From a virus (lineage: Duplodnaviria; Heunggongvirae; Uroviricota; Caudoviricetes), in IMG/VR virus record IMGVR_UViG_2698536392_000024, positions 1-15,087 of that record: a stretch of DNA of 15,087 nucleotides; one strand, 5' to 3'. How positions within the stretch are numbered: the first letter of the stretch is position 1; every line of letters starts with the position of its first letter. Both the position numbers and the translations under genes were made by a program. The notes below the pieces were generated by a model. That model did not search any database. It had not been told where the DNA came from and worked only from the letters and a program-made list of their open reading frames with translations. Below, piece by piece: positions 7,880 through 7,908 of this stretch.

Positions 7880-7908
7880 GTGAACAACGTGGAACAACCA
7901 CGAACAAA
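7880..7908 (-). promoter_or_regulatory. Three phased direct repeats upstream of the capsid operon; candidate activator binding site
   Basis: Minus strand reads TTGTTCGTGG / TTGTTCCACG / TTGTTCACTG at 10-bp phasing; a 17-mer GAACAACCACGAACAAA is identical to one at 215-231. Confidence 0.4.

Follow-up and report, generated by a model that had tools for sequence, protein, structure and literature searches.

Phased TTGTTC repeats in front of the capsid operon and in the attachment arms of a capsid-forming PICI are candidate AlpA operators

Why should one short direct repeat, phased at 10 bp, stand both in front of the capsid operon of a phage satellite and near its end, and which protein would read it there? 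The question is raised by the stretch of DNA analysed here (the window, 15,087 nucleotides), a capsid-forming PICI (cf-PICI) with clpS and cspD as its chromosomal neighbours; E. coli 2012C-4227 has an identical copy, flanked by clpS and yljB/cspD. The master inducer of Gram-negative PICIs, and of cf-PICIs, is AlpA. Overexpression of alpA alone yields EcCIEDL933 capsids with no helper phage (bioRxiv 10.1101/2025.02.11.637232), and an alpA mutant of EcCIEDL933 is not induced. No definition of the DNA target was found in the literature searched on PICI and cf-PICI AlpA. An earlier note on this DNA proposed that the repeats may be AlpA-responsive, one set controlling the head operon and the other lying near an island terminus or a leftward transcript. 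Nearly all genes of the window lie on the minus strand, and the following features are needed at the outset.

85..102, no strand assigned: att core copy ATGATAGATAACTATCAT; homology to the empty site stops at 106
6505..7662, minus strand: major capsid gene, first of the morphogenesis operon (Pfam Phage_capsid 2e-61; RefSeq annotation of the identical copy)
7959..8183, minus strand: phrog_1957 gene, preceding the capsid operon
13221..13430, minus strand: alpA, short type (...LGGRSVGW), candidate binder (Pfam Phage_AlpA PF05930, 9e-16)
13849..15087, minus strand: tyrosine integrase gene int, with an arm-DNA-binding domain (Pfam Arm-DNA-bind_3)

Following alpA on the minus strand are an Icd-like gene, a DUF4222 gene, pri-rep, iterons, ssb, perC, the phrog_1957 gene and the capsid gene, which is in turn followed by genes for protease, portal, connectors, HNH, terS and terL. 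Empty sites in other genomes match the window at positions 1-106 only, and a second core copy ATGATAAATAACTATCAT, with one mismatch, lies beyond the int start, as read from the flank of locus L001. The empty-site match ending at 106 and the core at 85-102 place position 205 in the int-distal (P') arm, about 100 bp into the island. The RefSeq annotation of the identical copy lists two genes, terL (1322-2982) and pri-rep/primase (9532-11360), as pseudogenes with frameshifts, and given these frameshifts the island may be defective or decaying. A 132-nt tandem repeat at 728-1034 comprises two full copies and one partial, and its copy number differs between the window and an otherwise identical RefSeq record. 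A C4 antisense RNA and an isrK Hfq-binding RNA (12204-12291 and 12313-12388, minus strand, both above the Rfam gathering score) are located just upstream of the Icd-like gene and form a P1/P4-style immunity RNA module, over which a 323-aa ORF (12239-13210) looks spurious.

The repeats and the sequences beside them are as follows.

7882..7907, minus strand: capsid-upstream array of three direct repeats at 10-bp phase, TTGTTCGTGG / TTGTTCCACG / TTGTTCACTG
205..240, minus strand: P' arm array, TTGTTCGTGG / TTGTTCGATA / TTGTTCGTGA, plus a degenerate fourth unit GTGTTGATC
174..197, minus strand: tandem 12-mers, ATTAACTACACC twice, adjoining the P' array; putative Int arm-type sites
13552..13568, minus strand: two phased CGAAC units CGAACCTTAGCGAACAA, in opposite orientation to the TTGTTC arrays, about 120 bp upstream of alpA

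Read on the plus strand, GAACAA-N4-GAACAA-N4-GAACAA (TTGTTC on the coding minus strand) occurs without mismatch at 205-230 and 7882-7907, and 200 dinucleotide-preserving shuffles gave 0 exact matches to this triple pattern. Lone GAACAA hexamers show no enrichment (13 in the window against 9.9 expected), and the signal thus resides in the phasing. With up to one mismatch allowed per hexamer, the window has 2 chains of at least three phased repeats, compared to 0.0 in 200 shuffles, while EcCIEDL933 has 4 chains of at least two (0.155 expected), two of them in the att arms (P' and P), one before the capsid gene and one in the int-alpA spacer. The description given in the earlier note was therefore accurate: the capsid-upstream triplet, which it had placed about 220 bp from the capsid start, lies 220-245 bp upstream of the ATG (7662), just after the terminator of the preceding gene (a terminator-like hairpin at 7931-7948 with a T-run, ending 7959-8183), and the second triplet has the same orientation, shares the 17-mer GAACAACCACGAACAAA with the first (215-231 and 7892-7908) and stands beside tandem repeats. 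What the note did not contain are the P' att-arm setting of the second triplet, a third array upstream of int, and a larger element that includes a TTGTAAAT box.

In form, both 205-230 and 7882-7907 correspond to the array of a recombination directionality factor (RDF), with at least three head-to-tail repeats 10-11 bp apart; in location, 205-240 is in an att arm, as expected for such an array, and 7882-7907 is in the middle of the island. Sister elements carry 3-7 units. The spacer array of EcCIEDL933 is identical to its capsid array at 24 of 25 nt, and 5-7 GAACAA units are found at the same int-alpA spacer position in EDL933, L002 and L004. The corresponding spacer of the window contains a different phased triple, GAATATC/AAATATC/AAATATC (13771-13797, minus strand), followed some 40 nt downstream by a fourth unit. 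This triple may be the operator of another regulator, or the alpA allele of the window may use it for autoregulation. When each locus was scanned for 31-nt self-similarity, only the window/EDL933-type module rose above the shuffled null; the second class of arrays described below (TCATG) needed a motif search.

To the array at the capsid operon belongs one further feature.

7911..7918, minus strand: TTGTAAAT box, 4 nt upstream of the first repeat

Capsid-upstream regions were compared among 88 cf-PICI loci, which reduced to 78 distinct sequences, with capsids 64-100% identical. The earlier note had made the presence of the motif in orthologous capsid promoters a test of its reading, and the motif or a lineage-specific equivalent is indeed present in about 60 of the 78, as a conserved element composed of the TTGTAAAT box, 4 nt, and three pentamers at 10-bp phase. 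The distance from the box to the capsid ATG is about 215-256 nt in most carriers and about 118 nt in a few. The TTGTTC array itself is kept in EDL933, Shigella and other E. coli cf-PICIs, and the region is present in 444 E. coli genomes. Pentamers are alike inside one element and unlike between lineages: E. coli and Shigella have TGTTC three times, and TCATG-type pentamers are found elsewhere, for example CGTACTCATG TTTACCCGTG ATTAC and TGTCCTCATG CTTTCGCATG. In comparison, the TTGTAAAT columns do not vary in 26 diverse cf-PICI sequences, and the box together with the G..C of the first pentamer is unvarying across lineages whose AlpA proteins are at most 45% identical. Since the box is the same whatever the AlpA type, something else also reads this region. 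The signature of box plus repeats could be used in genome annotation to flag cf-PICI late promoters.

AlpA is the sole excisionase-like protein found in the window. It is assigned to the PHROG 'excisionase and transcriptional regulator', and a PDB sequence search retrieved 8c3t alone, labelled AlpA-family phage regulatory protein (6e-8). A single-sequence AlphaFold model has low confidence (pLDDT 65) and gave non-significant Foldseek matches (MerR-family wHTH, and weakly TorI, 1Z4H), so that the evidence for the fold comes from Pfam, PHROG and PDB 8c3t. Two types of AlpA are encoded by the compared elements, a short one (...LGGRxVGW), to which that of the window belongs, and a long one of about 94 aa (...GRNSCAW). 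Short AlpA is paired with GTTC repeats and long AlpA with a GTnyTCATGyTT motif. Counted over non-redundant combinations of AlpA type and capsid-upstream array, the TCATG-type array accompanies short AlpA in 0 of 8 cases and long AlpA in 17 of 23 (Fisher p = 3.8e-4), a co-variation that is confounded by early modules moving as blocks and by loci that are non-independent through shared ancestry. Both array types precede capsid genes that are 99% identical, which indicates that array type goes with the early module rather than with the late genes. Elements with long AlpA have the TCATG-type motif at three coding-strand sites: one in the P arm, about 155 bp upstream of int, one before the capsid gene and one in the P' arm. 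This three-site pattern parallels the TTGTTC arrays of short-AlpA elements.

A comparison between L003-type and L185-type elements separates AlpA from the integrase. Their Ints are 59% identical and their 12-mers and att sites differ, whereas their AlpA proteins are 98% identical and the P-arm motif is shared, AlpA being the sole early protein with at least 85% identity. The arrays are thus tied to AlpA rather than to Int. The proposal of AlpA-responsive arrays accordingly gained from array type following AlpA and from the capsids produced upon alpA overexpression, and lost from three mosaic groups of E. coli (L003; L146, L148 and L149; L147), in which long AlpA occurs with GTTC-type capsid arrays. 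An initial grouping of pentamers into TTC and TAC had implied no co-variation with AlpA, L003 and L184 having near-identical AlpA; it was dropped when regrouping by TCATG, with the att arms included, reversed that result. Taken together, these observations make AlpA the probable binder of the phased arrays, a judgement drawn from sequence comparison and held with moderate confidence.

Other candidates for the binder were considered. Pentamer type tracks neither Int, PerC nor the upstream small gene. The phrog_1957 protein was rejected, as it is missing from several box-bearing elements and its copies, about 85% identical by a by-eye estimate, stand beside different array classes. PerC was rejected as well, because no homologue was detected outside E. 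coli and Shigella cf-PICIs, yet the element is kept there. An unbiased search for ORF families separating TTC from TAC elements gave no other candidate; two families were separated, one a 70-aa protein present in 21 loci only, the window not among them, and the other made up of spurious long ORFs that span the C4/isrK RNA region and are fused to the Icd-like gene. Look-alikes of ArcA, TorR, CRP and sigma-E sites were considered and dropped as mere resemblances. In L007 (Erwinia psidii, 793-5056) and L006 (Citrobacter, 2543-4928) an HTH_17 excisionase-family protein replaces Phage_AlpA; L007 adjoins P2-like gpD and Ogr genes, and palindromic AAGTACTT repeats with 20-bp spacing precede its HTH_17 gene.

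The unvarying box invites another explanation, in which the capsid element is read mainly by a factor common to cf-PICIs or their hosts, such as Fis at TTGTAAAT-N-GTTC, and the likeness to the att arms is secondary. The invariance of the box and the first-pentamer G..C where AlpA is at most 45% identical speaks for such a factor, as do the mosaics with non-matching AlpA. In lambda, moreover, Fis cooperates with Xis at attR. Box and first repeat together (7902-7916) fit GNNNAWWWWWTRNNC, which we take to be the Fis consensus, and the conserved columns agree with it; however, the 2 matches in the window are not above the 2.9 expected by chance. The three pentamers also change together in each element, following AlpA type, and the 17-mer shared identically with the att arm and the 24 of 25 nt matched by the EDL933 spacer favour one binder for all these sites. 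As for a satellite-encoded common factor, PerC and the phrog_1957 protein are missing from some box-bearing elements or do not co-vary. We consider this explanation rather unlikely. A broader scheme combines it with AlpA into a universal late-operon switch: TTGTAAAT would be read by a host factor (e.g. Fis) next to a swappable AlpA array, AlpA would be at once both-arm RDF, activator and an antiterminator carrying RNA polymerase through the terminators that bracket the leader, and the GTTC and TCATG classes would have been swapped by exchange of modules between satellites. This scheme is speculative, and we judge it improbable.

The region around the repeats and down to the capsid gene contains the features listed below, candidate promoters among them.

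7835..7865, minus strand: candidate promoter region, read from sequence
7857..7862 and 7835..7840, minus strand: candidate 1, -35 TTTACC and -10 TATTCT, 16-nt spacer
7860..7865, minus strand: -10 TATTTT of candidate 2, whose -35 would be the third repeat TTGTTC, 16-nt spacer
7921..7948, minus strand: intrinsic-terminator-like hairpin AGCCGGAGCAATCCGGCT plus T-run (hairpin 7931-7948), ending the phrog_1957 gene
7663..7699, minus strand: GC-rich hairpin GTCCTGGAG...CCCCAGGAC plus U7, abutting the capsid ATG

A consensus scan of the capsid-upstream region gave no strong sigma-70 promoter. Both candidate hexamer pairs are shared by the window and the diverged L003, with spacers that are not conserved, and in other lineages a -35-like TTTAC(A/C/T) is found about 15 nt after the third repeat. 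The capsid leader, about 170-190 nt, is strongly structured (fold z = -3.46 for 7655-7860), and the hairpin at 7663-7699 is conserved in L003, EDL933 and L004; it could act as a terminator or attenuator, or mask the RBS. A structured leader with a hairpin-U7 touching the ATG makes control beyond initiation possible. The same layout of hairpin, T-run and ATG, containing the CGAACCTTAGCGAAC that also occurs in the paired CGAAC units upstream of alpA in the window, also precedes alpA in L179, L187, L188, L193 and L194. Near-identical terminators (93%) at 7927-7953 and 8281-8307 flank the lone phrog_1957 gene, which is thereby a separate unit between the early and capsid operons.

In another reading the repeats act at the RNA level or load an antitermination factor, in the style of P. 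aeruginosa AlpA or lambda Q, so that a modified polymerase reads through the terminators before the capsid gene. Terminator-like hairpins do bracket the region (7931-7948 and 8285-8302), the hairpin with U7 adjoins the ATG, and most other lineages have a terminator that overlaps the third repeat; P. aeruginosa AlpA is itself an antiterminator that loads at a promoter element (PMC7969949). However, RNAalifold on 26 diverse box-plus-repeat segments returned 0 conserved pairs, the present repeats differ in sequence from the P. aeruginosa element, GGGACGN5GGTA, which is placed between -35 and -10, and lie upstream of the candidate -35, and att arms, with no evident role for antitermination, have the same arrays; the PDB search with the window AlpA, moreover, retrieved only 8c3t. 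Action at the RNA level or through antitermination is judged improbable.

The att arms bear on the remaining question of whether the integrase, and not AlpA, reads the arrays. In the arm upstream of int, which is outside the window and was read in L001, tandem 12-mers ATTAACTACACC / ATTGACTACACC lie beside five phased GAACAA-like units, and two further GAACAC units adjoin the core. This third array and the int promoter lie past the window end; with 23 nt between the end of the 12-mers and the int ATG, the promoter must be inside the P arm. The arrangement of the P' array recurs in L002, EDL933 and IMG/VR PICIs, and the layout of arrays and 12-mers on both arms is common to L002 (at proX/ygaZ, with Int 76% identical) and EcCIEDL933 (at phoQ/roxA), so that the window, L002 and EDL933 present one arm layout at three chromosomal sites. 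No IHF consensus was found near the arrays; the sole two matches in the window fall in the 132-nt tandem repeat, each unit of which holds the exact consensus AATCAACGGTTTA. Many non-E. coli cf-PICIs are integrated immediately downstream of fis (L182, L185, L177, L188 and L209 ends), a target shared with PICMI satellites and used by cf-PICIs with two Int types, and L209 has two tandem elements there.

Replacement of Int, as in L003 and in elements of the L185 and L209 types, goes with altered 12-mers but unaltered phased arrays. The 12-mers are GAGTGATACACC in L003, whose Int is 47% identical to that of the window, TGTATAAACAYT in the fis-site elements, and GTGCAGTCAG in L188 and L209. Changing in this way with Int, the 12-mers behave as Int arm-type sites, with the phased hexamers as a separate class, and those at 174-197 are probably such sites, as far as sequence can tell. 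An alternative would make the arrays a second class of Int arm-type sites, bound by the N-terminal arm-binding domain; through the capsid copy, Int would then control the late operon or tether it. Occurrence on both att arms is normal for arm-type sites, and Int has an Arm-DNA-bind_3 domain; nevertheless, it is the 12-mers and not the GTTC or TCATG arrays that co-vary with the N-terminal domain of Int, 59%-identical Ints with different 12-mers occur with one array motif and one AlpA, and further arrays, before the capsid gene and between int and alpA, are far from any att core. We hold this alternative to be highly improbable.

There is very little to be said for packaging (cos/TerS) or iteron sites, or a functionless chance or relic duplication: although the iterons GGTGAACAG (direct and inverted, 9341-9533, downstream of pri-rep, and likely the replication origin) share a TGTTCAC core with the third repeat and TerS proteins bind repeats, the iterons lie beside pri-rep and differ among elements that share the capsid array (CTATCTACCC in L004 and L005, whose Rep differs and where the TTGTTC capsid array is still kept), the TTGTTC arrays neither cluster by the rep gene nor co-vary with Rep, classical PICIs without terS or a capsid gene retain the att-arm and spacer arrays, and chance has an expectation of essentially zero for sites conserved at fixed positions.

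None of these alternatives accounts so well for the co-variation and the three-site pattern as AlpA does. Our preferred reading, which we think has a somewhat better than even chance of being right on the present sequence comparisons, is that the arrays are AlpA operators with a dual function, as sites of recombination directionality and as promoter sites of the late operon. AlpA, a small winged-helix protein of excisionase type, would bind head-to-tail as monomers, one per helical turn, and polymerise on the phased units. In the att arms it would sit beside Int on the 12-mers and bend the arms for excision as the RDF, and in the P arm AlpA and Int would probably also tune the int promoter, as in KplE1. 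At 7882-7907, where the array precedes what would be a weak capsid promoter, AlpA, with the TTGTAAAT box, would switch on or help to switch on the morphogenesis genes. With arrays at both ends and in front of the capsid gene, excision would be coupled to capsid production. As to the second site of the earlier note, its position near an island end is correct, the array being inside the P' att arm; its setting beside putative Int sites makes recombination directionality the likelier role, and not control of a leftward transcript. Some points do not favour AlpA: arrays on both att arms are unusual, as RDFs are normally found on one arm; if the int-alpA spacer of the window is an autoregulatory operator, this AlpA allele might prefer another motif; and Pint activity was unaffected by AlpA in EcCICFT073 (PMC6092414).

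AlpA is necessary and sufficient for excision of PICMI, and is predicted to resemble TorI and Xis (PMC10803314), and in EcCICFT073 it activates genes of the island and its own promoter, Pint not being activated in that assay (PMC6092414). The arrays provide a candidate AlpA operator that can be mutated, which falls into two specificity classes and of which the prototype EcCIEDL933 has four copies. Two questions thereby become testable: what triggers the capsid operon, and whether AlpA acts as activator or as excisionase.

In general, RDFs bind tandem direct repeats head-to-tail, one helical turn apart, and Apl, Cox and Vis also regulate promoters (PMC7498355). The nearest parallels are Apl of phage 186 and Cox of P2, small DNA-benders that use 5-7 direct repeats 10-11 bp apart in attP and at a distant promoter, and that couple excision to the lytic programme, as proposed here (PMC7498355). 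They differ from AlpA in protein family, in acting as repressors (of pL/pR or Pc) where AlpA is predicted to activate, in having att sites on one arm instead of both, and in governing an early switch instead of the late (capsid) operon. TorI of KplE1, another winged-helix RDF, has sites with a GTTCG core, three of them phased at the -35 of the int promoter in an att arm, where Int arm-type sites are interleaved and int, as here, is transcribed inward from the att site (PMC2951348); the repeats of the window read TTGTTCG. The differences are that all five TorI sites are in attL, that TorI represses intS, and that no late-operon site has been described for it. TorI and the window AlpA have no phmmer similarity, and the fold match to 1Z4H has TM 0.55 and E 2.7 with a model of pLDDT 65.

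Vis, of the satellite P4, also regulates the late promoters of P4. It is an AlpA relative required for excision (PMC6092414) that bends att DNA (PMC7498355), although its relation to PICI AlpA is remote (PMC6092414). The oligomeric wHTH RDF of ICEMlSym R7A, RdfS, binds attP upstream of intS, activates PintS and also acts on other promoters (PMC11963761); it differs in belonging to an ICE and not a phage satellite, in forming filaments in solution, and in having no defined short hexamer repeat. The AlpA of P. aeruginosa shares the name, the small winged-helix form, a promoter-linked DNA element and downstream terminators (PMC7969949), but its element has the sequence and position given above instead of upstream phased repeats, and it has no att role. 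Dual sites of an RDF that is also a regulator are thus a kind already known, of which the arrays described here are most likely a further case, and they suggest how a satellite links its excision and its capsid production through one small protein.
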